64,000 bases of DNA from an uncultured Flavipsychrobacter sp. (GTDB lineage Bacteria; Bacteroidota; Bacteroidia; Chitinophagales; Chitinophagaceae), in the NCBI GenBank assembly GCA_964481425.1, contig CAYZTM010000009.1:31452-95451 (forward strand), read 5' to 3'. Of the stretch, positions 47,585 through 63,192 are shown one piece after another. The notes beneath the pieces were generated by a model. The model had not been told where the DNA came from. It saw nothing but the letters and a program-made list of their open reading frames with translations, and searched no databases. Position 1 is the first letter of the stretch. Every line of letters begins with the position of its first letter. Made by a program: the position numbers and the translations under genes.

Positions 47585-47665
<81 letters not shown>

Positions 47666-48307: not shown

Positions 48308-48360
48308 TTCGAAAGTTTTATCAGTACACCTTTACAGGTAGTCCCGACTTTTCTGTCGAA
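48308..48360 (+). repeat. 53-bp imperfect-palindrome element, copy 5 (direct orientation, left arm diverged)
   Basis: The sequence is ttcgaaagttttatc-agtacacctttacaggtagtcc-cgacttttctgtcgaa. The spacer core ACCTTTACAG resembles copy 4 (ACCTATACAG). Confidence 0.75.
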
Positions 48361-48883: not shown

Positions 48884-48888
48884 AGGGC

Positions 48889-49884: not shown

Positions 49885-49885
49885 T

Positions 49886-50734
49886 TTACTGATGGTTTGA
49901 TTGGTGAACAATGTTGTTAAGCTGGTTCTTTCGTGCTGTAAACTCGTGTACAAGTACCTGTTGATACTGTGGATGGGCATAGTAGAGGCTGTTCAGGTCT
50001 TGAACGCTTGGGGCTGTCCTGACACGTTGTAGCATCACCTCATAGGTAACAGGTGGTGGCGCATCTACGCCCGTGTTACACCATTCAGCAATAGCCCTGC
50101 CTGTGTCTGCCGATGGTATAAATTCAGGCTTACTACCGAATAGCTCTGTTCTATCCTTAGATGCCTTTGCCCTGTGCTGCATGTCCATCTCGAACACGAG
50201 TGTAAATTCGTATTCAAGGTTATCCCTCTGCACTCCCTTCATTCCAACCTTTTCAGGGACTTGCTTACCGTTCTTTTCTGATAGCACATATTCCTGCTTG
50301 CTGCGGATAGTGCAGATAAAATGGGCATTGCTTTGGAGTATTTTGTTGACAAAGGCATCATGGCGTGGTAGAACCTTAGCCCAATTCGTGAACGAGTTGC
50401 CTGCAAGAGAGCTATGGTAGTCAATGATGAAGTCCCATTCGTGGCTGGTGCTGTCAATAATGATTACTTCCATGCCAGCATCAAGGCAGATGTTGATGCC
50501 CTCACAGTAACGTTCAGGGCTGTAGGGCGGTTCCAATGATAGGGTTTTGAATGTGCCCAAGTGGGCGTATAGGTCTGCACTGTTATTCTCTGTATCAATA
50601 ACAGCAATCTTGTTCCAGTTGCCACACAGACCATAGGCAATAAGTAAGGCGGACATGGTTTTGCCGCCACCGCTGGCTGATTGAATACCCAGCTTGATTT
50701 TAGCCTTCTTACGGCTGGCTTGTTGTAGTTGCAT
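49886..50734 (-). CDS. Sak4-like RecA-fold AAA ATPase
   Basis: I prefer the start at MQLQQASRK (50734). Walker A is GIQSASGGGKT and Walker B-like is VIIIDSTSHEW. The size of about 280 aa and the layout match phage Sak4-type single-strand annealing ATPases. Confidence 0.65.
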   Translation of the reverse strand: MQLQQASRKKAKIKLGIQSASGGGKTMSALLIAYGLCGNWNKIAVIDTENNSADLYAHLGTFKTLSLEPPYSPERYCEGINICLDAGMEVIIIDSTSHEWDFIIDYHSSLAGNSFTNWAKVLPRHDAFVNKILQSNAHFICTIRSKQEYVLSEKNGKQVPEKVGMKGVQRDNLEYEFTLVFEMDMQHRAKASKDRTELFGSKPEFIPSADTGRAIAEWCNTGVDAPPPVTYEVMLQRVRTAPSVQDLNSLYYAHPQYQQVLVHEFTARKNQLNNIVHQSNHQ

Positions 50735-50805
50735 TGTATTTGTTTTTGGGTGAAGAAATGCGTAGTGGATTGTGTGTACAGGCGGATTGATGTACATTAG
50801 CCTAC

Positions 50806-51219
50806 ATGGACATAAGCGAATTACTCTTATTTGCTGACAACACTTTTTGGGATAGCATCAACGAACGCCACCAACAAAAAGGCGGTGTCTATAAAATCAT
50901 AGCTGTTGCTGATGGCAAGCGTGTACCTATCAATAGGTTTCTTGGCACGGACAGTGAAGGCGTACTGTACATCGGAAAGGCTACCTCATTTTTGGATAGG
51001 GTTTTAGACCTAAAGAAGTCCTTGTCACCTTCGTACAATAGCGGTGCTCACATCTGCGGGAGAAGGTATAAGAGTCTGCCCAAGATTGCCGAACACTATC
51101 CATTTGAAACGCTGCACGTTGACCTGTTGCCATCTGATACACCAGAGTTGTTAGAAGCGCAACTGTTGGATAGCTATAGGAACAACTTCGGTGAAGTGCC
51201 ACCATTGAATGCCATATAG
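50806..51219 (+). CDS. GIY-YIG nuclease-domain protein
   Basis: 137 aa. GGVYKI (GIY), about 20 aa of spacer, VLYIGKA (YIG), a downstream Arg (DRV) and Glu (LLEAQLL) occur in canonical order. Confidence 0.55.
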   Translation: MDISELLLFADNTFWDSINERHQQKGGVYKIIAVADGKRVPINRFLGTDSEGVLYIGKATSFLDRVLDLKKSLSPSYNSGAHICGRRYKSLPKIAEHYPFETLHVDLLPSDTPELLEAQLLDSYRNNFGEVPPLNAI

Positions 51220-51266
51220 ACAGAGCAAAAAGAGGTAAGGGCAGCATATACCACCCTTACCATAGC

Positions 51267-51671
51267 TTAGTTCAGCTTTGCAGGCTGCTCTGTTAGCACC
51301 TCTGTTTCGGCCGCTATTGGCTTCGACAGGTCTGTTCCCTTTGACCTTACGGCAACCATGCGCTTGCCTCCTTCTGGCTGATAATCCCACCTGTAGCCAA
51401 GTTTCAGAACCTCGCCCGTTTCAGGCATGGTGTATTCGTAGGCTTCACATGGCACACGCTCTATCGTCCCTGCCATCTGCCTGCCAACCATACGTGCTGC
51501 GGTGGCTTCATCGAAGGTGCTGCTGATAGTACACCTGCGTACTGTGGCATAGAACCTGCCGCTATTCTGCGACTGCACCATTTCAATATCCCCTTCAAGG
51601 TCTAAGGAGATGTAGTGTTTCTTGTCGCCTTCTTTCTGCTGCCGAAGGCTGTAACCTGTTACTGTAACCAT
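51267..51671 (-). CDS. hypothetical protein (island replication/recombination module)
   Basis: 134-aa ORF in the coding strand context. No motif was recognised. Confidence 0.45.
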   Translation of the reverse strand: MVTVTGYSLRQQKEGDKKHYISLDLEGDIEMVQSQNSGRFYATVRRCTISSTFDEATAARMVGRQMAGTIERVPCEAYEYTMPETGEVLKLGYRWDYQPEGGKRMVAVRSKGTDLSKPIAAETEVLTEQPAKLN

Positions 51672-52084
51672 TTTTAAGTGCTTTTGAAGTGATGAATAAA
51701 CGAACTGTGGGGCGACAAGGGGGGCATACCCCCAACCCAGAATTAAGGACGGGCTGAAAGAAGGGGGTGGTCAACCTTCGTATATGCACATGGGGGGTAC
51801 TCATTGAAACGGGGCTTCCAATTTTGGGGTGGGAAATTTCGATGTAGCTTTTTCGTGCTGGTAGTCTTTCACCAACATAAACGGGCAGAATAATGCTACA
51901 ATATACAGGGGCGGAATTGAGGCTGTTTAAGCCATCCTGTAGCAGCTATCAACAAATGGTGCAGGAAACAGCCCAAATAACGCTATATATATTATATGGG
52001 TGCGCTACAAATAGCTTGACGTGTGAGGGCACAAAAGGGGCTATTTGAGCACTCCTAATCTCACGTGAGCACGAGCGTCTTTCG

Positions 52085-52137
52085 TTCGACAAAAAAGTCA
52101 AACAACCCATATGGATGCTCTCGACTTTTCTTTCGAG
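52085..52137 (-). repeat. 53-bp imperfect-palindrome element, copy 1 (inverted orientation)
   Basis: The plus strand reads ttcgacaaaaaagtc-N22-cgacttttctttcgag. Its reverse complement, CTCGAAAGAAAAGTCG-N22-GACTTTTTTGTCGAA, matches copies 2-4. It lies 4 nt beyond the helicase stop. Confidence 0.85.
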
Positions 52138-52140
52138 TGG

Positions 52141-54519
52141 TTACAGCAATCTTACTTCAAGAAGGTCGGGTGATATAGTGCGCTCAACGCTGCCCTCTAT
52201 CAAATAATACTCGTCCTTTAGCTTGTTGTGCATACGCTTCTTCATCGTCACGTTGGTAAAGCACTTCTCAAACTCCTTGTAGATGATTGCTTTTTTCGCT
52301 GCCATATCGGGTATGTCTGCCACTGATGGCATGAAGGGGAAAACCCTATCCTTTAATAGCCTGTCAGCGCCATTGAGTGCTGCAATAACGGTTTCACATT
52401 CTGCAATAAAGCTGTCCTGTAGCTGTGTATGTGCATCCCTGTGTATAAGGTTCTCCGACTTGCTGTTTTGTACGGCTTGCTTCGTCATGAAGGTAATAAA
52501 GCCTTTACGTAGCTGGTCGAGTTTATGGAACTGTAAGACACGGTCATTCTCTATGTCCTCAATGTCCACACTGCCTGCAAGCCCAGCGCAGGAAAGTATG
52601 TAGTCCTCTTTAGTCAGCCCTGTAACCTTGCCTTTAGTAGCCATTGTTACATAGGCATCTATTAGGCTCTGGACGTATTGCGGGGTGTTCTTTATAGCAC
52701 CTGCATTGAGTTGTCTGTGGTTGGCAATGAACTGCACCTTTTCACTTACCCCAGGTTCTCCATCTGCACCAGAGCTAACGGTATCTAATGACCTTAGCAA
52801 TAGCTCAACTGCGGCTGGCAGGTCGAGTTTTGCCGCTTGGGTTACTGTTTCATCGGTCAACATAGTTCCGAACGTTGTCTTTGCGGTGTCTTTTGTCAAC
52901 TGCACACTCCTCCTGCGAATAGAGGTATAGGTTATTTCAGTGAGTGTAGCATTGCAGAACTGTCCATAGATTGCGCCCCAAAGGACATAAGCGTTTAGTT
53001 CCTTACCATAGGAATAATGGTTAGCCAGCAACTTCTTTTGGCTGTCCTCTACAAGGTAGTTGCTGAACGATGGGTAGCTGGAACCTAACTGTAGATTGCC
53101 TTGTGTCTGAATGTCGTTCAGTGCCGCTATCTGTTCGCTTACACGGTTTTTCAACCGATTGTATGTGGTCTGTAGTTCAGTATAGAAGCTGTTTTGGCGT
53201 ATGTATTCCTCTGTATCTGTGTTGTCGGTTATATCCTCTGGCAGATAAGGCAGGCTGTTTTCCCTGTTGATAATCGTTGAGGGCTTTAGCATGAGGACAT
53301 GCACATGCCCAATACGCCTTATCCTCGCCATTGACTGAATAATTGAAGGTAGCCCATCGCTGAAAATGCCATACTTAGGGTCGTTGCCGCCAAGACAAGG
53401 GAGTATGCAGATGAACACTGAATCTGACTGCTCTATATCAACGCCTGTCTTAAATGCTGTGCCTAAATTGTTCCTGTTCTGTATAAACTCATTGTCGTTA
53501 TCACTTGTAATCAGATTAGGGTTGAGTAGCTTGACGGCATTTATCAAGTCGGTATTATCAGGGCTATTTGCGGCATCCAGCAACCCGTTTGCCATGCTCT
53601 TATGCCCTGTAAGTATGTTGATCTGTTTGTCCTTATTGTCATCTATGATTTTGCGTACCACATAGTCAAGCGGCATCAGGTTTTGTCCACTGTATGCCCT
53701 CTCAAATAGGTGCAGGTGCAATGACACAGGCTGGTCTATTTTAAGTCTTGGGGTCTCATAAACTGTAATGTTGCCGCCTGTTAGCGCTCCAATATGTTGG
53801 ACAGCAGGAATTGCCGCAGGTGTGAAGGTAGCACTGCTAACATAAGCCTTATGCACCACACCCTTCCACCTCATCAGGTTAGGCACAAACTCGTCAGTGA
53901 AGTTATGAATTGACTCGTGTATCTCATCAAAGAACATCACAACCTTCTTTTCAACTCTATCCTCGTCATAGCAGCTATTCAGAACACCACGTAGAAATTC
54001 CTGCTTGATTTTTAGCTGGTCGTATGCCTCTCCCCCAGGGTTCTGCAACAGGCAGTTTATAGTCATTACATGAATGCTATGGTCAACATGCGGCATGAAA
54101 TTGAAGTGATACCCAGGTTGCTTTGCCGCTTCCATTGTTTGCCCTAAGTGCTCATAGTTGAATGCTTCTAATCCGCGCTTGGTTAGGTTTGCCCAATCTT
54201 TCTCAACAAGTTTCTTAAAAGGACTTAGCACTAATACTATGTAACCTTCCTTTGCATACTTTGCTATCAGGTCGTAGCATGCACGAGTTTTGCCCTTACC
54301 CACCTGAATATTGAACACCACCGTTTCAGTTTTGGAATGGTCAATGTTGCCCATGTGGTTGTTCACATCAAGGAACTCGTTGCTCCTTAACGGTATCTGG
54401 TTCATATCTACGGTGAACCCATTAGCCTGCAATACATCAGTTGGGATTTTGAAGTAGTCTATCTCTTGTTCAGCCAATTGGAAATCCAACTGGCTTGTTG
54501 TATAGGAAATATTGCTCAT
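52141..54519 (-). CDS. superfamily-2 (DEAD/DEAH-like) helicase with large uncharacterised C-terminal half
   Basis: 792 aa. Walker A is NIQVGKGKTR, motif II is MFFDEIHES, and a later SSATFTP resembles motif III (SAT). About 350 C-terminal residues carry no recognised motif. Confidence 0.7.
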   Translation of the reverse strand: MSNISYTTSQLDFQLAEQEIDYFKIPTDVLQANGFTVDMNQIPLRSNEFLDVNNHMGNIDHSKTETVVFNIQVGKGKTRACYDLIAKYAKEGYIVLVLSPFKKLVEKDWANLTKRGLEAFNYEHLGQTMEAAKQPGYHFNFMPHVDHSIHVMTINCLLQNPGGEAYDQLKIKQEFLRGVLNSCYDEDRVEKKVVMFFDEIHESIHNFTDEFVPNLMRWKGVVHKAYVSSATFTPAAIPAVQHIGALTGGNITVYETPRLKIDQPVSLHLHLFERAYSGQNLMPLDYVVRKIIDDNKDKQINILTGHKSMANGLLDAANSPDNTDLINAVKLLNPNLITSDNDNEFIQNRNNLGTAFKTGVDIEQSDSVFICILPCLGGNDPKYGIFSDGLPSIIQSMARIRRIGHVHVLMLKPSTIINRENSLPYLPEDITDNTDTEEYIRQNSFYTELQTTYNRLKNRVSEQIAALNDIQTQGNLQLGSSYPSFSNYLVEDSQKKLLANHYSYGKELNAYVLWGAIYGQFCNATLTEITYTSIRRRSVQLTKDTAKTTFGTMLTDETVTQAAKLDLPAAVELLLRSLDTVSSGADGEPGVSEKVQFIANHRQLNAGAIKNTPQYVQSLIDAYVTMATKGKVTGLTKEDYILSCAGLAGSVDIEDIENDRVLQFHKLDQLRKGFITFMTKQAVQNSKSENLIHRDAHTQLQDSFIAECETVIAALNGADRLLKDRVFPFMPSVADIPDMAAKKAIIYKEFEKCFTNVTMKKRMHNKLKDEYYLIEGSVERTISPDLLEVRLL

Positions 54520-54538
54520 GTTTCTTGTTTCTGGACGA

Positions 54539-54546
54539 CAAAGGTA
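54539..54546 (-). promoter_or_regulatory. candidate -7 box (TACCTTTG) for the helicase gene
   Basis: The reverse complement of caaaggta is TACCTTTG (TAnnTTTG), about 20 nt upstream of the ATG at 54519 and directly downstream of 53-bp element copy 2. Confidence 0.35.
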
Positions 54547-54564
54547 CGAATATGACGTCCACTG

Positions 54565-54617
54565 TTCGAAAGAAAAGTCGGAGATACCTATGAAGCTATG
54601 GTGACTTTTTTATCGAA
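54565..54617 (+). repeat. 53-bp imperfect-palindrome element, copy 2
   Basis: The sequence is TTCGAAAGAAAAGTCG-gagatacctatgaagctatggt-GACTTTTTTATCGAA. Confidence 0.9.
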
Positions 54618-54687
54618 TGGTTTTGAAGAATGTCTACAAAGCACCATACTTGGATATTGAGAAATTATGGTGCAGGTAGATTCATCT

Positions 54688-56880
54688 TCATTCATTATGA
54701 TGTCTTTTTCTACTCCTGAAAATATTCTTTAAAAAATTACCAGTTTTATTTACTGCATCCGCTTGATCTACCAATATGTCCATTAACGATGCATCAGGAT
54801 GTTGAATGTCTTCCATTTTTACACCGTGTTCCAATTGCTTGGGATAGAGCAATATAAAACTAATATTGTTAAAGTGTTTCGACAAATAATAATGCATTTT
54901 ATCCAATACTGAGTTATGAGAAATATGCCCTCTACGAGATGAAATCACCACAAATAAATCGTCAGCCCTAAGTATCCCTGTGAAAATAAGAAATTCGTCC
55001 CAAATACTAAAAGTATTAAATGTAACATTTATCAGGAGGGGAACTGCCTGATTAATCTGTCGAAGTTTAATAATGGTTTCGTCGCTTGCATAAATAATAA
55101 TGGGCATGTCAGTTGCTTTGGCGATAGTCATTATCTTTCTATACCAATGTAAAAAGCCTGGTTCCATTTCAGCAGATTGAGTAACTACCACTACAATACG
55201 ATTTAGGGTATTCAAAGGTTGAACTGGATTGTAAAAGTAAATTGTCTCAGAAATTGCAGTAAGCACGTTGTCTTCAATGGCTCCAAAAAACTCTTTCCTG
55301 TTATTGTTTCGATGAACGCCTATTAAAACATCCGATATGTTATGTTCTTTTATTGAATAAATAATGCCATTGCTAATATTAATATCATAGCGGTTAACTG
55401 GGATAATTTTGTTTTCCGTTGCTGCTGCATGCATCAATGCTTTGTTCATCATTTTGCCACTTGCTGCAATAGGTTTTCCGTCACCACCGTCATCGCTCAC
55501 AATATTCAATGCATATACAGGTATTCTACTTTTTTGATGCTTCAATAATAATCCCATATCGACAAGGTCTGTAACAGTATCTGGGTGCTCAATAAATATG
55601 AGTAGCTTTTCAGTAGGTTCACTATTTTCCGTTTCGGATGTTTTCGCTTCTTCATCCAATGCGGCGATATTTCGGGCGGCTCTTTCCACAACGAATGAGC
55701 CCAGAGTACAACTAAAAAGAATAAGTAAAATTGTTCCGTTGAGTACATCTTCATCAAGCAATCTAATCGGCTCTCCCGAAGCACTTTGTCCAATAATGAT
55801 ATTGTAACCTACAAGAATAATAGCAAGTGTAGCAGCAGCATGGGACGTGCTAAGACCAAATATTATTCTCCCTTCATCTTTGGTAAGTTTGAAGACATAT
55901 TTTGTTATCATTGCGGCTCCGTATTTTGTTGCAATAGCAACTGTGATGATTACTCCTGCAACTTTAAGCGCACCCAATCCTTTTACCAATACGGTAACAT
56001 CAACAAGCATTCCCACTCCAATAAGGAAAAAAGGTATAAACAAGGCGTTTCCTACAAAGTCTATTCTGTTCATCAAAGGCGAGAAGTGAGGTATGAACCT
56101 GTTGAGCACCAATCCAGCAAAGAACGCGCCAATAATTGGCTCAAGGCCTGCCGTCTCAGCAAGAAATGCTGCAAGGAATACAATAGCAAGCACAAAAATA
56201 TATTGTGAAACATTATCGCTAAATCGCTTGAAAAACCATCGGGCAATAATTGGGAAGATGAAAAATACAATGGATACAAAAACTACTGTCGAACTACCGA
56301 ACCTAACCCAATAGCTTGTGGAAATGTCTCCCTTTGCCATACCTGCAATTGCAGCAAGGATCAGCAGAGCTAAAATGTCAGTTATCATGGTGCTCCCTAC
56401 GGTCAGCGTAACCGCCTTGTTTCGTGCTACTCCATACTTGCTGGCTATCGGATATGCTATTAAGGTATGAGTTGAAAACATACTGGCAAGGAGTATTGAC
56501 GACATTATGCCATATCCAAGAACATAGTAGCTCGCCAATGCACCCACAGTTAGCGGTAAGGAAAATGTCATTAATCCCAAAAAAGCAACCTTGCCTCTGT
56601 TTTTTTTAAATTCGTTGAGGTCAATTTCTAATCCAGCAAGAAACATGATATAAAGTAGGCCTACCGTTCCAAATAGAATAATGCTGCTATCACGCCTAAG
56701 AAGATTAAGCCCATGTGGGCCGATGACAACCCCCGCTATAATGAGCCCTATCAAATGAGGTATTTTGATTTTGTTGAGCAAGATCGGGGCAAAAAGAATG
56801 ATGAATAATACAAGTGAAAAAATTATCACTGGATTACTCAATGGTAGGTTAAGACTAATTTCACTCTTCAATATTATCAT
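54688..56880 (-). CDS. cation:proton antiporter (CPA family) fused to C-terminal USP-like domains
   Basis: 730 aa with about 12 TM segments of Na+/H+ exchanger type (..GLEIDL.., ..GPHGL..). A soluble C-terminal half of about 300 aa follows, with two alpha/beta blocks. The gene is visibly more AT-rich than its neighbours. Confidence 0.75.
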   Translation of the reverse strand: MIILKSEISLNLPLSNPVIIFSLVLFIILFAPILLNKIKIPHLIGLIIAGVVIGPHGLNLLRRDSSIILFGTVGLLYIMFLAGLEIDLNEFKKNRGKVAFLGLMTFSLPLTVGALASYYVLGYGIMSSILLASMFSTHTLIAYPIASKYGVARNKAVTLTVGSTMITDILALLILAAIAGMAKGDISTSYWVRFGSSTVVFVSIVFFIFPIIARWFFKRFSDNVSQYIFVLAIVFLAAFLAETAGLEPIIGAFFAGLVLNRFIPHFSPLMNRIDFVGNALFIPFFLIGVGMLVDVTVLVKGLGALKVAGVIITVAIATKYGAAMITKYVFKLTKDEGRIIFGLSTSHAAATLAIILVGYNIIIGQSASGEPIRLLDEDVLNGTILLILFSCTLGSFVVERAARNIAALDEEAKTSETENSEPTEKLLIFIEHPDTVTDLVDMGLLLKHQKSRIPVYALNIVSDDGGDGKPIAASGKMMNKALMHAAATENKIIPVNRYDINISNGIIYSIKEHNISDVLIGVHRNNNRKEFFGAIEDNVLTAISETIYFYNPVQPLNTLNRIVVVVTQSAEMEPGFLHWYRKIMTIAKATDMPIIIYASDETIIKLRQINQAVPLLINVTFNTFSIWDEFLIFTGILRADDLFVVISSRRGHISHNSVLDKMHYYLSKHFNNISFILLYPKQLEHGVKMEDIQHPDASLMDILVDQADAVNKTGNFLKNIFRSRKRHHNE

Positions 56881-57118
56881 ATTTAATTTTATCTAAGTGA
56901 TATTCTTCAATGCATGCACATATAGATTTTCCAGCCCCAAGTTGCAATAATAATGTTTAGTCATTTAGCGAATATATAAAAATAAGTTAAACCGAATGGG
57001 AGGGCATTAAATACTCATGCCAAAGTAAGTAAGGACAGCAAGATTTAAAGTTTGAGCTTGGTGTGGTTTGCATGCCACTTACTTTTCATTTCTCCTTATT
57101 GGAGTAGGCGCAATATTG

Positions 57119-57171
57119 TTCGAAAGAAAAGTCGATTAGACCTACAAGGTTGTGTAGAGTTTTTTATCGAG
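57119..57171 (+). repeat. 53-bp imperfect-palindrome element, copy 3
   Basis: The sequence is TTCGAAAGAAAAGTCG-attagacctacaaggttgtgta-GAGTTTTTTATCGAG. Confidence 0.9.
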
Positions 57172-57321
57172 TTTTTCTGCGATTTTTCGAAGCTGTTTGA
57201 GTTAGCGTATAAAAAAAAGCCAGCCTGAGAACAGACCAGCCCCTATAAACCCTATCACCATGAAAACCTTATAAAGATAGCTTACAGATTTGAAATATCA
57301 AAGCCTACTCATCGTTCATCA

Positions 57322-57960
57322 TCATACATCAACGCCTGTAAGTCTCGCTTTCGCAATGAGCGCCTCTATTAACTCTATGGTCATTACATCCTTAAAGGTG
57401 TTGAGCCAAATGGATGCGTTTATCAGTACTTCAGTTCTGTTCCGCTTAAACATACTCTCCAATTCAGCAGGTGTCAGTTTGGGGTACTCAATAGGGTTCA
57501 ACACTTCATCAGGTGTAGGGTTATAGTTATCTGGAAAGTCCTCATCTGCACCGTAAAGGCTAAAAGCCTGTTCCCATGCTAAGCTATCGAGGGTATGGAT
57601 AAGCTGGTGTATGTCGAGCGGTATCATTTTGTTTAGGTCAGGGTTCTGATAGTCGCTTAGCTCAACATGCCCAATATCTAAGCCATCATAGTAGCCTATA
57701 AACGGCTGCCAAATCCCCACCTTCCACATTGCCCTTAGCTCATCCGTCCACTCCAAATTCTGGTTAAAGGATAGCCCTATAGACGGCTTGCATATCTGCT
57801 CTGTGTCCTGTATGTAGATGGGATAATATGCCTCGCCCATGATTAGGTGAGGCATGTATTTCTTCACTTGTTCGGTGGTAAACGGATAGTGCAGGGAGAT
57901 ATACCTTATGGCGAAGTCAAGGTTACTGGCAAAGAAGTCGTAGAATGGATTGCTGTTCAT
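57322..57960 (-). CDS. hypothetical cytoplasmic protein (4th gene of island operon)
   Basis: 212 aa with no signal peptide or TM segment and no recognised motif. It starts 20 nt after the upstream stop. Confidence 0.5.
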   Translation of the reverse strand: MNSNPFYDFFASNLDFAIRYISLHYPFTTEQVKKYMPHLIMGEAYYPIYIQDTEQICKPSIGLSFNQNLEWTDELRAMWKVGIWQPFIGYYDGLDIGHVELSDYQNPDLNKMIPLDIHQLIHTLDSLAWEQAFSLYGADEDFPDNYNPTPDEVLNPIEYPKLTPAELESMFKRNRTEVLINASIWLNTFKDVMTIELIEALIAKARLTGVDV

Positions 57961-57980
57961 GTTGTGCCGAGATGAGGTAG

Positions 57981-58490
57981 CTAAAAGTACGTGTCTTGTA
58001 AGTAGCGGTCAATGGTATTTGCACCTTCCATCAGATAAGGATACATCTCCATGTACTTCCCCAGGTCATGGCTTACGCCGACCTCCTTACTAAGAGGTTT
58101 AATGAACAGTAGATACGTGATGATGCCCCCATAGTAAGTAGAGCCTTCCTCAAATATCTTGTCCAGTTCTGCCGTGTACAGTTTCAAGCGGTTCTCCAAG
58201 AACTTCACTGTTCCTTCCTTATCCAGTTTCAGGTAGCCATCCCGTGCAATGTGAATTAGCAACTCTCCATAGAGTGGTGATAAAACGGGCTGCACATCCT
58301 CCAAGCTGTCATAGGCAAGCCTTTTGCATACTGCGGTGAATAGTATGTTACACTCGATTTGCGAACTCATGTTTGACTTCATTGAGGTATGGCTCATGAC
58401 CGTGGTAGTGCAGCCATTTATCACCTTGTATATCTCCCTCTGTGGTTGATATGGTCGCAAATGATTAAAGAAGTCTTTCAATGCACCCAT
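57981..58490 (-). CDS. hypothetical cytoplasmic protein (3rd gene of island operon)
   Basis: I prefer the start at MGALKDFF (58490), 5 nt after the upstream stop, giving 169 aa. No motif was recognised. Confidence 0.5.
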   Translation of the reverse strand: MGALKDFFNHLRPYQPQREIYKVINGCTTTVMSHTSMKSNMSSQIECNILFTAVCKRLAYDSLEDVQPVLSPLYGELLIHIARDGYLKLDKEGTVKFLENRLKLYTAELDKIFEEGSTYYGGIITYLLFIKPLSKEVGVSHDLGKYMEMYPYLMEGANTIDRYLQDTYF

Positions 58491-58495
58491 AGTAG

Positions 58496-59110
58496 TTAGC
58501 GTATATTGGTAATCTTGAAACTGTTTAGAACTTGTGCATACAGCGGCTTCCACAGGGCTTCATCCTTCTGCCTGTATGACAAAATGAGCTGGTGCATCCT
58601 ATCATTGTTATGGAAGGTGTACATGACTACATAGACGGGTGGATTACTGCCTACCTGACGTACATATGAAGTCTTAAGAGCCTTGCAGCCGTTAACCATT
58701 TCTACGGTAGTGCCATTCCATGCAAGTAGTTTATCTGCACCCCTGTAATCGCCTTCGTTGGCTTTTCTGAACTGCTCATTGACCTGCTGTAGCTCTGTAG
58801 GCGACACATTCCATGTGTTCATTTTCAGGTACGCACCAGCCTTCTTTACGAAGGTGTTGATAATGACCTGTGCATAGGTTGTAGATGCCTTCTGTTTAAA
58901 GGTCATTGTCTTTGGTGTGGTAACTGACGGATAGGCACTGCTTGCGTAGTTGTGCGCATCGGTGTTATAGGTGTCGTCCGCCTTTGCCATATTGGACGGG
59001 ATAGATATTGTGCCTACGTCTGTTATGGAATAGCTGTGCATTTGTGGCTTCTGTGCGCTGGCATGTACGGTTACCACCAATAAACATGCTGTAATAATTG
59101 CTCGTATCAT
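58496..59110 (-). CDS. hypothetical secreted protein (2nd gene of island operon)
   Basis: The start at MIRAIITACLLVVTVHASAQ (59110) is a signal peptide. Its ATG overlaps the upstream TGA (GTATGA). Confidence 0.55.
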   Translation of the reverse strand: MIRAIITACLLVVTVHASAQKPQMHSYSITDVGTISIPSNMAKADDTYNTDAHNYASSAYPSVTTPKTMTFKQKASTTYAQVIINTFVKKAGAYLKMNTWNVSPTELQQVNEQFRKANEGDYRGADKLLAWNGTTVEMVNGCKALKTSYVRQVGSNPPVYVVMYTFHNNDRMHQLILSYRQKDEALWKPLYAQVLNSFKITNIR

Positions 59111-59370
59111 ACCTGCTCCTTCGGTTTTGACGGTGATACAAAGAAGCCAATTATGAACACCACAAGCCCGATACCACTGCCAAAAAGCAGGCTGGCAGGG
59201 TACATCTGCCAATAGAACTTATCGGGGTCAAGCTGTGCTTGCAATGTGTGCTGCTTGCTAATACCTTCACCGCCCATTTGAGCGCCCTTGCATACCCTGT
59301 CGTTTATGTAGTATGCAGCAATGAAGGTTACTATGAGTGCTATAATCAGAGGTGTTGTTGCTCTTTTCAT
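59107..59370 (-). CDS. small two-TM membrane protein (1st gene of island operon)
   Basis: 87 aa. The two hydrophobic helices are PLIIALIVTFIAAYYI and ASLLFGSGIGLVVFIIGFFV. Confidence 0.5.
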   Translation of the reverse strand: MKRATTPLIIALIVTFIAAYYINDRVCKGAQMGGEGISKQHTLQAQLDPDKFYWQMYPASLLFGSGIGLVVFIIGFFVSPSKPKEQV

Positions 59371-59416
59371 GTACTGTACGTTTTGAGATGTGAAAGTATA
59401 AAAGATTTCTGTACTT

Positions 59417-59434
59417 CATAGCAAATTTGCTATG
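59417..59434. promoter_or_regulatory. 18-bp perfect palindrome, a candidate operator in the divergent XRE/operon control region
   Basis: CATAGCAAATTTGCTATG is a perfect inverted repeat. It sits between the operon start (59370) and the XRE coding region, and each half contains AAATTTG, which resembles a -7 box. Confidence 0.5.
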
Positions 59435-59705
59435 GTGTAAACTACGAGTAAATACTCCCTTTGTGGGAGTGGCGAAACGGACTTACTACAAGGATGAGCA
59501 AGGGGTAATTGCCTTCGGTAACAAACTCCGTGAGATACGCCTTAAAAAGGGCTATTCACAGGAACGGCTTGCCAACGAAGCGGGGCTACCACCTTCCCAA
59601 ATCAGCAGGATAGAGACAGGAGTAATAAATACCTCCCTGTCTCATATCTGCTTGATTGCTCGTGTCCTTAAAGTGAAGCCAAAGGAGTTGATGGATTTCG
59701 ATTAG
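59427..59705 (+). CDS. XRE-family helix-turn-helix transcriptional regulator
   Basis: The HTH_3 pattern is LREIRLKKGYSQERLANEAGLPPSQISRIETG. No ATG lies upstream of the HTH. The track start is a TTG inside the palindrome, and the GTGs at 59463 or 59469 are more plausible starts. Confidence 0.7.
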   Translation: MLWCKLRVNTPFVGVAKRTYYKDEQGVIAFGNKLREIRLKKGYSQERLANEAGLPPSQISRIETGVINTSLSHICLIARVLKVKPKELMDFD

Positions 59706-59735
59706 TCTATTAGTCATGGTATAGCCTGCTGACCA

Positions 59736-59788
59736 TTCGAAAGAAAAGTCCTACCCACCTATACAGTATGTCCGACTTTTTTGTCGAA
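59736..59788 (+). repeat. 53-bp imperfect-palindrome element, copy 4
   Basis: The sequence is TTCGAAAGAAAAGTC-ctacccacctatacagtatgtcc-GACTTTTTTGTCGAA. Confidence 0.9.
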
Positions 59789-59964
59789 TGACTGCATAGG
59801 AAATAGGTGCAGGAGTTACCCCACACCTATTAGCCTTGACCCAGGTTCTTCCTTATTACCTACAGTGAATAAACTTGAACGGGTTGCAGATGAAATCCCA
59901 CAGTCCGATGAGGAATATTACCATGAGGATACTAAGGATGGTACGAATGATTTTTACAATGGTT

Positions 59965-61206
59965 TTAATCATCTCTCTGTTTTTGAAGGTTAACACTTTG
60001 GTTGGTTAGTTTGGCATCAAGGGCTGCCATGTCTCCGCTAATCTTAGTGTCCACAACCTTGCTATAAATCTGTGTGGTCTTGATGTTCGTGTGCCCAAGC
60101 ATTTTACTCACTGTCTCTATCGGCACTCCGTTGGAAAGTGTGATACTTGTAGCGAACGAGTGGCGTGCAATGTGGAACGTCAGCTTCTTGGTGATGCCGC
60201 ATACATCTGCAATCTCTTTCAAGTAAGCATTCATCTTTTGGTTTGAAGGAACTGGAAACACGTAGGCATTATCGGGGTTAGCTTTGGCTCTATATCGCTC
60301 AATTAGAGCCAGAGCTTGCGGCAGCAAGGGAATAGGTACCCTTGTATTCGTCTTAGTCCTGTAGGTCTGAATCCATAGCTTACCGTCAATACCCTTAGTA
60401 ATTTCCCCATGTCTTAGTTTCTTCACATCGGCATACGCCAATCCAGTGTAGCAACTGAACACGAATACATCTCTTACTTGGGTTAGTCGTGCGCTGACAA
60501 GTTCCTTAGACTGTATCAAGGTTATTTCTTCCTGCGTAAGGCACTCACGTATGACAGGCTGTAAGGTGCATTTGAAGGCTTTAAACGGGTCATGTTTCAG
60601 CCACTCCATGCCGATCCCGTAGTTAATTACCCGTTTCAAGAACTGGATGTACTTAATGGCTGTATTGTGCCCAATGTGTTCGTCCGCTTTCAAGTACAAC
60701 TCAAAGCCCATCAGGAAGCCTTTGTTAAGCTGGTCAAGGGCTATATCGCTTGCCTTGTACTGCTTACGCAGGAAGCCCTTCACTTTGAGCAATAGTGTCT
60801 CATACTTGGTATAGGTTGCTTTGCGGACTTCAATACCAACCCTACGCTTCACATAAGCGTTATGGTGATGCAGGAGCCTAATAAGATACTCTGCCTTCTC
60901 CGTGGGATTTACAAGCTTTCCCTTGATGAGTTGCGAGGTGATAGGTAAGTCCTGTTTCAAGCATTCAGCGTAGATGTCTGTCGCTTTCGCCCGATAGGTT
61001 GATAGCAACTTGTTCGCATTAAACGCCTCCTCGCTCTTACCCTTGATAACAGCCTTCGCGCTATCCCAATTTTGCTTAGTAGTTGTGATACCCAGGTTTA
61101 CTGCCTCTCGCTTGCCAGCAATGGTGATGCGCATGTAAATAGGGTACTTGTCATTTGAGCCTCGTTGGGTGTTGATGTAAAAGGAAATGTGTAATCGGTT
61201 GTCCAT
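59965..61206 (-). CDS. tyrosine-type site-specific integrase
   Basis: An N-terminal arm-binding-like domain and SAM-like core are followed by the catalytic region: ..TFHIARHSFAT.. (HxxR), GHTNIKTTQIYSKV (H..Y). I prefer the ATG at 61206 (MDNRLHISFY) over the GTG at 61224. Confidence 0.9.
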   Translation of the reverse strand: MDNRLHISFYINTQRGSNDKYPIYMRITIAGKREAVNLGITTTKQNWDSAKAVIKGKSEEAFNANKLLSTYRAKATDIYAECLKQDLPITSQLIKGKLVNPTEKAEYLIRLLHHHNAYVKRRVGIEVRKATYTKYETLLLKVKGFLRKQYKASDIALDQLNKGFLMGFELYLKADEHIGHNTAIKYIQFLKRVINYGIGMEWLKHDPFKAFKCTLQPVIRECLTQEEITLIQSKELVSARLTQVRDVFVFSCYTGLAYADVKKLRHGEITKGIDGKLWIQTYRTKTNTRVPIPLLPQALALIERYRAKANPDNAYVFPVPSNQKMNAYLKEIADVCGITKKLTFHIARHSFATSITLSNGVPIETVSKMLGHTNIKTTQIYSKVVDTKISGDMAALDAKLTNQSVNLQKQRDD

Positions 61207-61430
61207 TTGCTCTGTTTTGAGCACTTGGAAGCCGCATCATTCAGCAACAATGTATACGTGGTTGATTGACAGAGGCTAATGAGGTCTTTCTTGTTGTCCG
61301 CCTCTCGTTTGGTCTGTTGTCCTCATGTTGTCCGCTTGGCTATTCAGGCTCGAATGGGCTCGAATTATCGTGCAAAGAGCGTCATCCTCTGAAAGCCTTT
61401 ACTGACAACCATATAAGGATTCCGTAAATG

Positions 61431-61453
61431 AAAAAGAGCCACATAAGTGGCTC
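61431..61453 (-). terminator. island-borne terminator following the reconstituted tRNA-Ser
   Basis: The gagccac-ataa-gtggctc hairpin has a plus-strand A5 run, which is a T-run on the minus strand. Confidence 0.6.
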
Positions 61454-61469
61454 ATTATCAAGTAGTTAT

Positions 61470-61548
61470 GCGGAGAGAGAGGGATTCGAACCCCCGGACC
61501 TTTTACAGTCAACGGTTTTCAAGACCGCCGCATTCGACCACTCTGCCA
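61470..61548 (-). repeat. integrase-proximal att direct repeat (inside the functional tRNA-Ser)
   Basis: 78 of 79 nt are identical to 47587-47665. Confidence 0.9.
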
Positions 61549-61555
61549 TCTCTCC
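61471..61555 (-). tRNA. tRNA-Ser(TGA)
   Basis: The reverse complement reads GGAGAGATGGCAGAGTGGTCGAATGC-GGCGGTCTTGAAAACCGTT-GACTGTAAAAGGTCC-GGGGGTTCGAATCCCTC-TCTCTCCG. The acceptor stem pairs 7/7, the anticodon loop is CTTGAAA (TGA), and the long variable arm is present. Confidence 0.9.
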
Positions 61556-61705
61556 GGGCGCAAAATTAGATAAGCAGAGGGATTTTCAAAAAGTTTTTTC
61601 TCAGCCTTCTATATATTTTCAAAAATGATGTTAAAAGGCTTTACTTATGCCCCTATAGAAATCCATGCCTGGGCTGCCTGCGTAAGTAATAGTAAATTTG
61701 AAGAA

Positions 61706-62383
61706 ATGAACAGCATACTGAAAACATCGTTATTGCTCTCCCTGTTCTGCACCCAACTTTCGGCCTGTGCACAGGACGAGCATTACCCAAAATCAAAAAC
61801 ATTCAAAGAAATGAACGATAGCCAACCAACAACAAACACGCATCACCTGGATACCGCAACCTTTGGGGCAGGCTGCTTCTGGTGCACGGAGGCACAGTTC
61901 CAGCAGTTAGAGGGAGTGGAGAAAGTAGAATCAGGTTTTAGCGGGGGGCATGTAAAAAATCCTTCTTATCGGGAAGTATGTACAGGTACTACAGGCCATG
62001 CTGAGGTATGTAATATTTACTACGACCCATCAAAGATCTCATTCGATGAATTGCTGGCTGCCTTCTGGACCTGTCATGACCCTACTCAACTCAACAGGCA
62101 GGGCAATGATGTGGGCACCCAATACCGCTCCGTGATATTTTATCACAACGAAGAGCAAAAGCAGAAAGCAGAAGAGTATAAGAAAAAACTAAACGAAGAG
62201 AAAGCATATGACAAGCCTGTGGTAACTGAGATAAGTCCATTCACTGTGTTTTACAAAGCAGAGGATTATCACCAGGATTACTACAATGAGAACGGCTCTC
62301 AGCCTTATTGCATGTTCGTTATAAAACCGAAGCTTGATAAGTTTGAAAAGGTGTTCAAAGGGAAACTGAAGAAGAACCATTAA
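61706..62383 (+). CDS. msrA: peptide-methionine (S)-S-oxide reductase, secreted/lipoprotein form
   Basis: The GAGCFWCTEAQF active-site motif is present. I prefer the start at MNSILKTSLLLSLFCTQLSAC (61706), which is a signal peptide. Confidence 0.85.
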   Translation: MNSILKTSLLLSLFCTQLSACAQDEHYPKSKTFKEMNDSQPTTNTHHLDTATFGAGCFWCTEAQFQQLEGVEKVESGFSGGHVKNPSYREVCTGTTGHAEVCNIYYDPSKISFDELLAAFWTCHDPTQLNRQGNDVGTQYRSVIFYHNEEQKQKAEEYKKKLNEEKAYDKPVVTEISPFTVFYKAEDYHQDYYNENGSQPYCMFVIKPKLDKFEKVFKGKLKKNH

Positions 62384-62631: not shown

Positions 62632-63192
62632 ATGACATTGAAATTTAACACGAAAAAAGCTGTCAATGTTATCCTTTTTGTACTGAAGAGCCTTGGAGGA
62701 AAGTGCGATCCGTTTCGTTTGTTCGCTATCCTTTATGCGGCGGACTTAAAGCATCTTGCAGGTTTCGACAGCCTGATACTTGACGACAGCTATATAGCCA
62801 TGAAACACGGCGCTGTACCCTTTAATGTGTATAGCATGTACCTGCAATTATACCGCGATGCAGTAGATGAATCATCGGGAGTAAACCTGAAGGAATATTT
62901 CTACATCAACGAGCAGAACCTGGTGGTATCAATAGCACAATATGATGACCGATATATTACCCCATCAGAAGCAGGCTGCCTGTTTGAAGCGATACGCGAG
63001 ATCAAGAATGAAAGTTTTGAATCGCTGAGCCGCAGCACCCGCAACCTTCCCTGGCGGGAGGCTAATAAGAATGGAGAAATATCTCTGCTGAGTATGGCCA
63101 AAGAAAGCGGTGCTTCTGATGAGTTGCTCAACTACATCAGCCACTCACTAGATGCAGGCACAGCAGTTGCGGGAGATAATACGATAGAGTAG
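62632..63192 (+). CDS. Panacea (DUF4065/SocA-like) domain protein
   Basis: 186 aa. The N-terminal pattern KAVNVILFVLKSLGG..D.FRLFAILYAADLKHLAGFD..I.DD.YIAMKHGAVP matches the DUF4065 antitoxin-type domain. Confidence 0.6.
   Translation: MTLKFNTKKAVNVILFVLKSLGGKCDPFRLFAILYAADLKHLAGFDSLILDDSYIAMKHGAVPFNVYSMYLQLYRDAVDESSGVNLKEYFYINEQNLVVSIAQYDDRYITPSEAGCLFEAIREIKNESFESLSRSTRNLPWREANKNGEISLLSMAKESGASDELLNYISHSLDAGTAVAGDNTIE

Follow-up and report, generated by a model that had tools for sequence, protein, structure and literature searches.

What does an operon of unfamiliar genes, located beside an integrase gene and probably controlled by a repressor, do for the mobile element that carries it and for the host cell? 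This question is raised by a locus within the window, i.e. the whole stretch of DNA analysed in this study (64,000 nt). The initial annotation described the locus as an XRE-family gene divergent from four tightly packed genes, whose products belong to no recognizable family and, being a mix of membrane, exported and cytoplasmic proteins, would form one trans-envelope exclusion or defence system. The gene arrangement was confirmed, including the overlap and gaps reported, using the list of ORFs and direct reading of the sequence. The four genes (minus strand, 57322-59370) encode proteins of 87, 204, 169 and 212 aa, and their junctions are an ATGA start/stop overlap (59107-59110; 87/204), a 5-nt gap (204/169) and a 20-nt gap (169/212). 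Searches of Pfam, NCBIfam, PADLOC and PHROGs produced no family match for any of the four proteins, in agreement with the first description; none of them matched a defence model of PADLOC-DB 2.0 at E values up to 0.1, and no homologue was found in the phage, plasmid and IMG/VR collections. The mixed localization of the products is likewise supported, by 19-residue hydropathy windows and a predicted signal peptide.

A conserved promoter/operator region at the 5′ end and an intrinsic terminator at the 3′ end support the view that the four genes constitute one transcription unit. The terminator (57215-57244, minus strand), identified in a terminator scan, is a 13-bp hairpin with a U8 tract after it; its fold energy is -16.7 kcal/mol (z -2.9). 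The sole evidence of expression of the operon is a single identical metatranscriptomic contig of 201 nt, which covers positions 58743-58943 of the 204-aa gene. Between sister elements, dN/dS is low: 0.03-0.07 for XRE and, within the operon, 0.05-0.16 (87-aa gene), 0.06-0.11 (204-aa gene) and 0.10 (212-aa gene). These three operon genes and the XRE gene are thus under purifying selection and are more than chance ORFs. The G+C content of the operon (0.452) equals that of the integrase gene (0.456) and of the host flank (0.457), so the operon does not resemble recently imported cargo.

The initial annotation also assigned the operon to the integrase-proximal position in a mobile element, with repeat copies as its borders, and both statements hold. 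The tyrosine integrase gene (59965-61224, minus strand), encoding a Bacteroidota-type enzyme with Arm-DNA-bind_5, Phage_int_SAM_5 and Phage_integrase domains, adjoins a tRNA-Ser(tga) gene identified with ARAGORN (61470-61555, minus strand), which is the attachment site. The element is 13.9 kb long, and its opposite boundary is given by a 79-nt direct repeat of this tRNA gene (47587-47665; 99% identity). Two contig joints between the tRNA copies (in run X2, 47605 to 61470; in runs X1 and X2, 47608 to 61529, the two positions being separated by 38 unmatched letters) constitute weak evidence. The repeats are imperfect hairpins of approx. 63 nt belonging to family D1: one (57117-57179; fold z -3.3) lies at the border of the operon and a Na+/H+ exchanger cassette, and the other (59734-59796; fold z -3.9; inverted pair I1) between the convergent XRE and integrase genes. 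They are 75% and 65% identical, respectively, to the reference copy at 54563-54625. Loci of related elements are designated here by L-numbers (L001, L020, etc.) and the window copy of the operon and element by W. One copy of the first hairpin is present at the equivalent border in the sister locus L005, while the second occupies the same position in L005 and L020.

Besides the integrase and XRE genes, the element contains genes for a ResIII helicase, an AAA_24 protein (phrog_1366), a DUF3871 protein, the exchanger and several unknowns. No virion structural genes, i.e. capsid or tail genes, were found within the 13.9 kb, so the label of prophage is not warranted. Integrated at tRNA-Ser, the element is similar to a phage satellite or to an integrative mobilisable element, and its host is probably a Bacteroidota bacterium of the Chitinophagales type living in wastewater. 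Physiological cargo occurs on these elements: the Na+/H+ exchanger in the window and fluoride resistance in L001.

The constant part of the locus is the XRE gene together with a conserved 18-bp palindrome and promoter. The XRE gene (59469-59705, plus strand; HTH_3, E 1e-15) was assigned a probable GTG start at 59469 (78 aa) and not the TTG at 59427 that opens its longest ORF, since homologous proteins have 80-83 aa. Its product gave the best PADLOC matches to an R-M "control protein" (E 2e-14) and to capH (E 7e-11), and orthologues of 80-83 aa (83-97% identity) are encoded in L001, L002, L005, L009 and L010. The perfect palindrome CATAGCAAATTTGCTATG (59417-59434), located between the XRE and 87-aa genes, is identical in W, L020, L001, L005, L007, L009 and L010 and has the variant GAGCAAATTTGCTC in L002 (8 loci in all). 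It is likely to be the XRE operator, overlapping the divergent promoters. On the minus strand, 5′ of the start of the 87-aa gene, there is a motif CTTTTATACTTTCAC (59390-59404), kept in W, L020, L001, L005 and L007 and present as a close variant in L010, as well as a sigma-70-like match (TTGCTA-18-TATACT, 59424-59395); these probably act as the promoter. The window integrase is 88% identical to that of L004/5, 72% to that of L010 and only 27% to that of L001, and this control unit remains constant across elements whose integrases differ to this extent and whose replication backbones are different (ResIII helicase vs. BT4734_N/DUF3987).

The genes behind the control unit form a mosaic of exchangeable units. 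The survey of co-occurrence, which had been put forward as a test of the four-component proposal, revealed the complete quartet outside this locus only in L020, where the same element is present as a copy with 97% identity, and thus, in the strict sense, no co-occurrence. In the other elements the genes of the operon are exchanged singly, at gene borders. A coherent four-component system is therefore not borne out, and the four proteins need not work together, since their genes are not kept together across elements. Nevertheless, the variation is patterned. In XRE-linked operons containing one of these families (nine lineages), the first gene or genes always encode membrane, lipoprotein or secreted proteins, and in seven independent lineages the XRE gene has behind it one or more envelope-protein genes and then a 212-family gene, a pattern that extends to L041, where the homologue is 30% identical. 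With regard to nearby defence genes, sister elements carry CBASS, BREX-like genes, nSTAND3 and a type I R-M system with Mrr, as well as a methylase with a SLFN/Fic-type protein. As to immunity families, only MORN_2 (YwqK-like) and TerB were recognized, both in sister-operon proteins.

The first two genes encode an envelope pair. The 87-aa protein (59107-59370, minus strand) is a predicted inner-membrane protein with two hydrophobic segments (approx. residues 4-27 and 56-81 in 19-residue hydropathy windows). Its orthologues in L004-6 (86% identity) and L007 (78% identity) are always directly followed by a 204-family gene, so that the pair is retained in three lineages (W, L004-6 and L007), and the ATGA overlap probably couples the two genes translationally. 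The 204-aa protein (58496-59110, minus strand) contains a single, N-terminal hydrophobic segment (residues 1-19) followed by ASA|Q, and is predicted to be secreted. Eight homologues were identified. The window protein has no Pfam match, the family profile found nothing among PDB sequences, and a faint precomputed match to PF18933 (PsbP_2) is confined to one homologue, P0021.

The AF2 model of the 204-aa protein (pLDDT 81, pTM 0.78) predicts an alpha/beta sandwich superposable on PsbP/CyanoP/DcrB. A Foldseek search of the PDB placed CyanoP/PsbP at the top (E 1e-5, TM 0.53-0.58), and the other matches included BT_1490, PA94, Tsi3, EagT6/SciW and DcrB; over the whole range, E was 1e-5 to 1e-2, probability 1.0 (e.g. 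for CyanoP, plant PsbP, PA94, DcrB and BT_1490), TM 0.45-0.58 and sequence identity 7-16%. The best viral neighbours in BFVD were phage lipoproteins (E 5e-6), one of them annotated as "host cell surface-exposed lipoprotein". The model thus shares the fold of the PsbP/Mog1p/DcrB (DUF1795) superfamily at a very low level of sequence identity; its partners and its mobile-element context are undescribed for this fold. The PsbP-like domain is always tethered, either by the company of the 87-aa TM protein (W, L004-6, L007) or by fusion to a lipoprotein N-domain (L001, L007). Neighbouring genes encode, among others, TerB and J-domain proteins with a membrane anchor, and one distant 204-family homologue shares a contig with a faint RHS-repeat protein.

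The remaining two genes encode proteins without a hydrophobic segment. The 169-aa protein (57981-58490, minus strand) is an ORFan: no homologue beyond its own cluster was found among 5.8 billion clusters and none in the related loci. A single distant relative, with 28% identity over 60 aa (pairwise E 5e-6), is encoded directly upstream of the 212-family gene P0031 (L040). In the only comparison possible, with the 97%-identical copy, the gene shows 2 synonymous and 2 non-synonymous changes.

The 212-aa protein (57322-57960, minus strand; pI 4.45) is, as judged from sequence comparisons, a stand-alone copy of an unnamed acidic domain that is elsewhere fused to DNA enzymes. The family is small (82 cluster representatives in 1.84 billion proteins), its genes are present in nine element lineages, and the AF2 model is poor (pLDDT 60). 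Fusion partners are PIF1 helicases (including a chromosomal one of Chitinophaga skermanii), a DnaQ-like (RNase_T) exonuclease accompanied by WYL, an SF1 helicase with REase, SSB, HNH and a TPR-DUF7017-S1CSD (TOTE-type) protein. In view of these repeated fusions, the most probable role of the 212-aa protein is to dock onto a DNA transaction or to regulate one, and its initial assignment to a trans-envelope module could not be upheld.

A defence or exclusion role of the operon may reasonably be inferred. More specifically, we tentatively favour a module gated by a repressor, which would act at the envelope in exclusion or protection and be joined by a DNA-linked component; we regard this reading as possible rather than probable. 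In such a module, XRE would bind the 18-bp palindrome and hold both divergent promoters low. The 87- and 204-aa proteins would constitute a binding module in the periplasm, with the inner membrane as its point of attachment; in sister elements the tether of this fold is the lipoprotein domain instead. The 169- and 212-aa proteins would form a second, cytoplasmic unit, in which the 212-aa protein docks onto or regulates a DNA transaction. The operon would thereby shield the carrier cell and the element from incoming threats at the envelope, by superinfection/entry exclusion or by neutralizing a periplasm-acting factor, with a DNA-linked protective layer alongside.

Protection at the envelope is consistent with the modelled fold of the 204-aa protein, for which Tsi3, an immunity protein of the T6SS located in the periplasm, is found among the matches together with DcrB and phage lipoproteins. 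Further points in favour are the anatomy of the operon, the constancy of the control unit, the invariable tethering of the PsbP-like domain, the low dN/dS values and the fusions of the 212-domain. The resemblance of XRE to regulators of defence operons (C-proteins and CapH), the defence cargo of the sister elements and the recurrence of envelope proteins in XRE-linked operons also point to a protective role. Against it stand the generic nature of the PsbP-like fold as a binding scaffold (with TM-scores here of only 0.5-0.58), the presence of the 212-domain in a housekeeping-looking chromosomal PIF1 helicase, the lack of known defence families among the four proteins, the dispersal of the quartet, the absence of homologues from the phage, plasmid and IMG/VR collections, a G+C content that is not that of a recent import, and the single metatranscriptomic contig as evidence of expression. 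A bolder version, to which we give a small chance, is that the XRE-operator unit, swappable tethered periplasmic proteins and the 212 adaptor domain represent a new modular class of exclusion/defence systems in mobile elements of Bacteroidota. A periplasmic sensor or blocker with a PsbP fold, located at the inner membrane, would then be functionally coupled to the cytoplasmic 212-aa protein, which would recruit or control host PIF1-type helicases, exonucleases and SSB against incoming DNA.

The fusion partners of the 212-domain (PIF1 helicases, exonucleases, SSB) would also suit a module of the element's own life cycle, serving its replication, transfer or interplay with a helper, which we consider unlikely. 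The 212-aa protein would be an accessory or adaptor of the element's helicase/primase, and the envelope proteins would act in DNA transfer or in the entry exclusion of sibling elements. Consistent with this, the operons of L002, L010, L004/5 and L024 directly precede, on the same strand, a ResIII-type helicase gene and the remaining replication block, and free 212-family genes occur in elements with AAA_24/DUF3871 or a 134-aa backbone gene (W, L041/42 and L019). However, the 212 family accompanies unrelated replication backbones (ResIII, DUF3987, AAA_25 and VapE) and is absent from L004-6 and L007 despite the same backbones. Moreover, the terminator and hairpins insulate the operon of the window from the helicase block, and the content of the operon is too variable for a core function.

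The presence of Tsi3 and of the T6SS effector chaperones Eag/SciW among the fold matches raises the question of an array of orphan immunity genes resembling acquired interbacterial defence, which is quite unlikely. The products would then be stand-alone immunity proteins directed at contact-dependent toxins: the PsbP/Tsi3-like protein would oppose a periplasm-acting effector, and the cytoplasmic proteins would oppose toxins of the nuclease or NADase type. The MORN_2 (YwqK-like) protein of a sister operon, the faint RHS-repeat protein on the contig of a distant homologue and the array of genes beside a tyrosine recombinase, as in rAID-1, are in line with this explanation. Pfam includes families of polymorphic-toxin immunity proteins, so such proteins would have been detected, but the four proteins have no Pfam match. 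Furthermore, no toxin gene lies beside any homologue in the contexts retrieved.

The rAID-1 clusters have been defined by (i) a XerD-like tyrosine recombinase on the 5′ side, with >44% identity to BF9343_RS08045, (ii) at least two co-directional downstream genes with a G+C content of ≤41%, skewed relative to the recombinase, (iii) repetitive intergenic sequences between the ORFs and (iv) homology to known or predicted immunity families (bioRxiv 10.1101/471110). As in these clusters, the genes of the operon are found downstream of a tyrosine recombinase gene and in its orientation, and the 204-aa model falls into the Tsi3/Eag fold class. The window integrase is of the Arm-DNA-bind_5/SAM_5 type and targets tRNA-Ser. 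The G+C content of the operon, given above, exceeds the rAID-1 limit and is not skewed relative to the integrase gene or the flank; the hairpins border whole blocks, while the individual genes are joined by the overlap and the short gaps, without repeats between them; and MORN_2 and TerB are restricted to sister-operon proteins. Unlike in rAID-1, an XRE repressor intervenes, and the hosts are Chitinophagales-type bacteria from sludge and not gut Bacteroidales. A dedicated repressor is not a feature of the described AID arrays (bioRxiv 10.1101/471110).

The independent, gene-by-gene swapping of units is what might be expected if the operon had no joint function and simply placed co-transcribed, unrelated hitch-hiking or host-physiology genes (e.g. 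for envelope stress or homeostasis) on one regulated promoter. DjlA, a co-chaperone of envelope stress, consists of two domains, TerB and J-domain, and membrane-anchored proteins with these domains neighbour the PsbP-like protein; other cargo (the Na+/H+ exchanger and, in L001, fluoride resistance) is physiological as well. The probability of this explanation is low, given the tight packing, the probable translational coupling of the 87- and 204-aa genes and the recurrence of the order envelope protein(s) to 212-family gene behind XRE in seven independent lineages. Finally, it is very improbable that the operon is a lysis or abortive-death cassette with the 87-aa protein as a membrane-damaging effector restrained by XRE: the size of this protein, its two TM segments, basic N-terminus and charged C-terminal tail (SPSKPKEQV) recall a class II holin, and tight repression by a dedicated regulator would suit a toxic product, but there is no endolysin or spanin, the next gene encodes a PsbP-like binding protein, the loop between the TM segments (~30 residues) is longer than would suit a holin, the PHROG holin families gave no match and the element lacks virion genes.

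A protective envelope module with a DNA-linked component may be compared with several known systems. Accessory ("moron"/hotspot) loci are found at the integrase/repressor end of prophages and phage satellites, e.g. the P2/P4 defence hotspots. The operon resembles these in its integrase-proximal position, its own promoter and terminator, the varying content among related elements and the defence systems of its sisters. In contrast to the hotspots, the regulator-operator-promoter unit is constant here and the genes behind it are swapped singly; no product of the operon belongs to a described defence or exclusion family; and the element lacks the hallmark genes of P4 and P2, with P4 cII-like and VapE-like genes present only in the distant relative L041.

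Superinfection exclusion is defined by phenotype: a membrane or periplasmic protein expressed from a prophage blocks the entry of DNA from a superinfecting phage. A small exclusion protein with two TM segments is exemplified by T4 Imm, which is paired with the periplasmic Sp. Other superinfection-exclusion proteins are the lipoprotein Ltp of TP-J34 and SieA of P22 (PMC4465916, PMC10883804). The operon is similar to these in that a mobile element encodes a small inner-membrane protein and a tethered protein exposed to the periplasm, as predicted here from the sequence, and phage lipoproteins are the viral proteins structurally nearest to the 204-aa model. It differs in that there is no sequence similarity to Imm/Sp, Ltp or SieA and the element is not demonstrably a phage. 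Ltp has a helix-turn-helix-repeat fold, unlike the PsbP-like fold predicted for the 204-aa protein.

As in the C-protein R-M cassettes and the CapH systems, a small HTH_3 regulator is conserved together with a palindrome in its own promoter region, which is predicted to serve as the operator. The regulated genes encode no restriction endonuclease or methyltransferase domain detectable with Pfam, NCBIfam, PADLOC or PHROGs, which sets the locus apart from the former, and, in contrast to the latter, they are not CBASS genes and the partner protease CapP is missing. A type II toxin-antitoxin system with an XRE antitoxin (HigA/HipB) was rejected, as XRE is divergent from the operon and no toxin family was matched.

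The families are very rare and the quartet is not a conserved system; the finding is a lead rather than a discovery. Whatever its function, the cassette formed by XRE and the 18-bp palindrome is kept in elements whose integrases and replication modules are unrelated and, with the genes behind it exchanged one at a time, it offers a neat natural system for the study of the assembly of accessory loci. Similarly, the 212-aa family represents an undescribed acidic domain with recurrent fusions to DNA enzymes, which merits naming and structure determination. Should the operon prove to be protective, an exclusion module that acts at the envelope and is made up of unnamed protein families would be added to the biology of wastewater and freshwater Chitinophagales and Sphingobacteriales, hosts whose defence systems and mobile elements are poorly charted.

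The ORF list and a direct reading of positions 56850-60000 of the window confirmed the layout proposed in the initial annotation, i.e. four tightly packed minus-strand genes divergent from a gene encoding an XRE regulator. The first gene (59107-59370) encodes an 87-aa protein. It shares an ATGA stop/start overlap (59107-59110) with the gene of a 204-aa protein (58496-59110), to which it is probably translationally coupled. The gene of a 169-aa protein (57981-58490) follows after a 5-nt gap and that of a 212-aa protein (57322-57960) after a further 20 nt. Hydropathy windows revealed two TM-like segments in the 87-aa protein (residues 4-27 and 56-81), a single N-terminal signal-like segment in the 204-aa protein (residues 1-19, with the boundary between HASA and QK) and no TM-like segments in the 169- and 212-aa proteins; the last of these is acidic (pI 4.45). 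A minus-strand terminator (57244-57215; hairpin followed by U8) is located 78 nt beyond the stop codon of the 212-aa gene, and this terminator, together with the conserved promoter region, bounds the four genes on both sides. The terminator sequence (57213-57264) is also present on an unrelated 35-kb contig of sequencing run X3, and at this site the read depth approximately doubles and assemblies break. The only evidence of expression is one identical 201-nt metatranscriptome contig within the 204-aa gene.

The product of the XRE gene clearly belongs to HTH_3 (E 1e-15), and its orthologs are 80-83 aa in length, which makes GTG at 59469 a likelier start codon than TTG at 59427. Its best matches in PADLOC are restriction-modification control proteins (E 2e-14) and CapH (E 7e-11). 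Between the XRE gene and the first gene of the operon there is a perfect 18-bp palindrome, CATAGCAAATTTGCTATG (59417-59434), which is identical in the window, in L020 (a near-copy of this end of the element) and in the related loci L001, L005, L007, L009 and L010; L002 has a variant of it. Judging from the sequence, it is a putative XRE operator overlapping the divergent promoters. A second motif in the same interval, CTTTTATACTTTCAC, is shared by the window, L020, L001, L005 and L007, and occurs in L010 in a closely similar form.

The XRE proteins of the window, L001, L002, L005, L009 and L010 share 83-97% identity; the integrases next to them are between 27% and 88% identical, and the adjacent replication modules also differ (ResIII helicase versus BT4734_N/DUF3987). 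Recent transfer was considered as an explanation of the 97% XRE identity between the window and L001 and was rejected, since dS over the shared genes of these loci is 0.65-1.7; a dS of 0.65 despite such identity indicates strong purifying selection. Based on these values and on the dN/dS ratios (XRE, 0.03-0.07; 87-aa gene, 0.05-0.16; 204-aa gene, 0.06-0.11; 212-aa gene, 0.10), the four genes concerned are functional and under purifying selection. A scan of metagenomes with the XRE alignment recovered only distant XREs (≤55% identity), one of which (L024) lies in a comparable element with different operon genes.

The integrase gene (59965-61224; Arm-DNA-bind_5, SAM_5 and Phage_integrase domains) abuts a tRNA-Ser(tga) gene. 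Two copies of this tRNA gene (61470-61555 and 47585-47673), with a common 79-nt direct repeat (99% identical), delimit a 13.9-kb integrated element. In addition to the operon it carries genes for a 792-aa ResIII-type helicase, a DUF3871 protein, an AAA_24 protein (phrog_1366, E 3e-75) and small proteins with no assigned function. Its clearest foreign cargo is a gene of the Na+/H+ exchanger family (54688-56880), encoding a 730-aa protein with a long C-terminal extension, whose G+C content is 0.378, compared with 0.45 in the surroundings. There are no virion genes within the 13.9 kb, and the element is of an integrative, satellite or mobilizable type rather than a demonstrable prophage. Gene orientation and gene content led us to reject both the prophage and the toxin-antitoxin pair readings. 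Contig joints between the tRNA copies (47605 to 61470 in run X2; 47608 to 61529 in runs X1 and X2) are a hint of an empty site or of an excised form or circle; it is a weak one, since repeated tRNA sequences are collapsed during assembly.

The border repeats described in the initial annotation also proved real, as imperfect hairpins of approximately 63 nt at 57117-57179 and 59734-59796. Further copies are located at 48326-48366 (partial), 52082-52141 and 54563-54625. The repeats of this family are composed of TTCGAAAGAAAAGTC, ~23 variable nt and GACTTTTTTNTCGAA. They mark every block border within the element, and outside it the family occurs only in the closest sister (L004-6, L020). The Na+/H+ exchanger gene is flanked by two copies, where the sister has one; this placement suggests either insertion of a cassette at the hairpin, or bidirectional terminators doubling as recombination hotspots.

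The sequence was found in wastewater and activated-sludge metagenomes; among genomes, Nemorincola caseinilytica and two MAGs, one of Chitinophagaceae and one of Sphingobacteriales, harbor the closest XRE-linked loci. A distantly related element (L041/L042) encodes AAA_24, DUF3871, P4 cII-like and HTH_17 proteins, a VapE-like primase/helicase, an N6/N4 methylase and a SLFN/AlbA_2-HATPase-Fic protein, and its XRE-linked operon comprises genes for a secreted protein, a 212-family protein, a lipoprotein and a second secreted protein. It points to a wider family of satellite-like elements in Bacteroidota. Just outside the element of the window, beyond msrA (61625-62383), there is a gene for a SocA/Panacea-domain (antitoxin-like) protein (62632-63192). 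Elsewhere in the window, the stretch 36001-38000 is of low G+C content (0.37-0.39 versus a mean of ~0.45) and may be another foreign insertion.

The four genes had been viewed as components of one system, and it is here that the comparison departs from that view. The only place outside the window where all four occur together is L020, a 4.3-kb activated-sludge contig that copies this end of the element at 97% identity. By the test that the initial annotation had set for itself, absence of co-occurrence at other loci, the quartet is therefore refuted as a set. All-against-all BLAST showed that the other retrieved contexts are mosaic. The 87- and 204-aa genes occur as a pair in L004-6 (86% and 80% identity, respectively) and in L007 (78% and 51%). 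The 204-like domain occurs alone in L001 and in a second gene of L007, where it is fused to an N-terminal lipoprotein domain of ~140 aa (free-standing in L003), and in L008 and L043 it is found amid other secreted proteins, with no XRE context. The third position of the operon, occupied in the window by the 169-aa gene, is filled in L001, L004 and L007 by a common two-TM N-terminal domain followed by a swappable one: TerB (E 3e-9), a helical domain or MORN_2 (E 1e-20). The 212 family is represented in L001 (74%), L002 (48%, with an acidic C-terminal extension), L003, L009, L010, L019, L040 and L041/L042 (30%).

At the DNA level the points of exchange coincide with gene borders. Collinearity between the window and L005 extends to the stop of the 204-aa gene (58495) and resumes at the hairpin at 54620; the window and L001 can be aligned only in the promoter/XRE segment, the segment of the 204 domain and the 212-aa gene. 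Diversity arises by gene swapping and not by rapid sequence change. The recurring sub-units are 87+204 and XRE+212. The pair 169+212 is probably a third: the only relative found of the 169-aa protein (28% identity over 60 aa; pairwise E 5e-6) is encoded directly upstream of a 212-family gene, P0031, in L040. No 169-like N-terminal domain was found in the longer 212-family proteins.

The AF2 model of the 204-aa protein (9 sequences) is good (pLDDT 81, pTM 0.78), and Foldseek against the PDB places it in the PsbP/Mog1p class, with CyanoP and plant PsbP as the first matches (E 1e-5 to 1e-4, TM 0.5-0.58). The next neighbors are BT_1490, PA94, Tsi3 (a periplasmic T6SS immunity protein), EagT6/SciW (effector chaperones), DcrB, TiME and MTC28. 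In BFVD the best neighbors are phage lipoproteins, the top one (E 5e-6) being annotated as 'host cell surface-exposed lipoprotein'. Since the PsbP-like fold is a generic binding scaffold, it tells of the location of the protein and its likely activity, i.e. binding, but not of the target. The 204-like domain is always tethered to the membrane, by either the 87-aa TM protein or a lipoprotein domain, an arrangement that is structurally sensible if the protein is a periplasmic binder anchored at the inner membrane. Membrane-anchored proteins with the two-TM N-terminal domain and a swappable cytoplasmic domain are encoded beside the PsbP-like protein in L001 (2776-3435), L007 (3854-4750) and L004 (4337-5062). 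Its neighbor in L008 (4741-5241) is a J-domain protein anchored by a TM segment at the C-terminus; E. coli DjlA comprises two domains, TerB and J.

The 212-aa protein gave a poor AF2 model (5 sequences, pLDDT 60), with which Foldseek found no matches. An exhaustive profile search among 1.84 billion proteins identified 82 representatives of the family, many of them fusions in which the 212 domain is C-terminal to its partner: (i) PIF1 helicases, such as P0055 of Chitinophaga skermanii (WP_111598721.1), encoded in a housekeeping neighborhood, (ii) a DnaQ-like RNase_T exonuclease, one example of which also has a WYL domain, (iii) an SF1 helicase with an MTES_1575/DUF559 endonuclease, (iv) SSB, (v) HNH and (vi) a TPR-DUF7017-S1CSD protein of the TOTE conflict-system type. 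As these partners share a DNA substrate and not a catalytic activity, and as the domain is acidic, it most likely serves, on the strength of these architectures, as an adaptor or regulator of DNA transactions and not in the envelope. In the PDB, a deeper 212 profile reached only borderline similarity, between the C-terminal helices (~70 residues) and the archaeal RNA polymerase subunit Rpo13 (E 0.004), which is no more than a lead. Some members of the family (P0014, encoded at L002 1026-2117, P0023, P0033 and P0065) have a long acidic C-terminal tail; those of P0014 and P0033 end in the strongly conserved GYNxWxDxAIDEAFEGDPExTWNVD, and P0023 and P0065 align with the tail of P0014.

The families are very rare. 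None of the four proteins has a match beyond noise in Pfam, NCBIfam, PADLOC or PHROGs at E up to 0.1, and PDB sequence and profile searches gave no match for the 204 family, the 169-aa protein or the first 212 profile. Among 5.8 billion clusters there are four relatives of the 212-aa protein, eight of the 204-aa protein and, apart from its own cluster, none of the 169-aa protein, with two members per 90% cluster for each. Neither IMG/VR scans nor tblastn against phage and plasmid collections revealed relatives, which leaves a phage or plasmid origin without support. In the literature on DUF3871 and on PsbP/DcrB/Tsi3 we found no description of such a locus type.

The recurrent design consists of XRE, the operator/promoter, between one and three genes for membrane proteins, lipoproteins or secreted proteins and, in seven XRE-linked lineages, a 212-family gene. 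Relatives of the element carry CBASS, BREX-like, nSTAND3, restriction-modification with Mrr, and methylase with SLFN/Fic genes. The reading that we tentatively favor, at something short of even confidence, is a repressor-gated protective module, in which the 87- and 204-aa proteins would form an envelope layer and the 169- and 212-aa proteins a DNA-linked layer. Phage T4 Imm is a small protein with two TM segments, and T4 Sp is periplasmic; together these two are the nearest architectural analog. A function in the life cycle of the element itself is rather unlikely. More doubtful is an orphan immunity array: compared with the criteria for recombinase-associated acquired interbacterial defence (rAID-1; bioRxiv 10.1101/471110), the operon equals the integrase and the flanking host DNA in G+C content (0.452) and has no repeats between its genes and no matches to immunity families, so that membership of rAID-1 was rejected. 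Unrelated cargo, or genes of envelope physiology, are improbable to the same degree, and a holin-like death cassette is very improbable.

Of the original proposal, the accessory, XRE-controlled, integrase-proximal operon of unfamiliar genes stands; a conserved four-component system and a purely trans-envelope function do not. It is a regulated accessory hotspot operon of a mobile element, made up of unnamed and very rare families. The most useful by-products of the analysis are a conserved XRE-palindrome cassette, behind which genes are swapped one by one, and an undescribed domain found in repeated fusions with helicases and nucleases.
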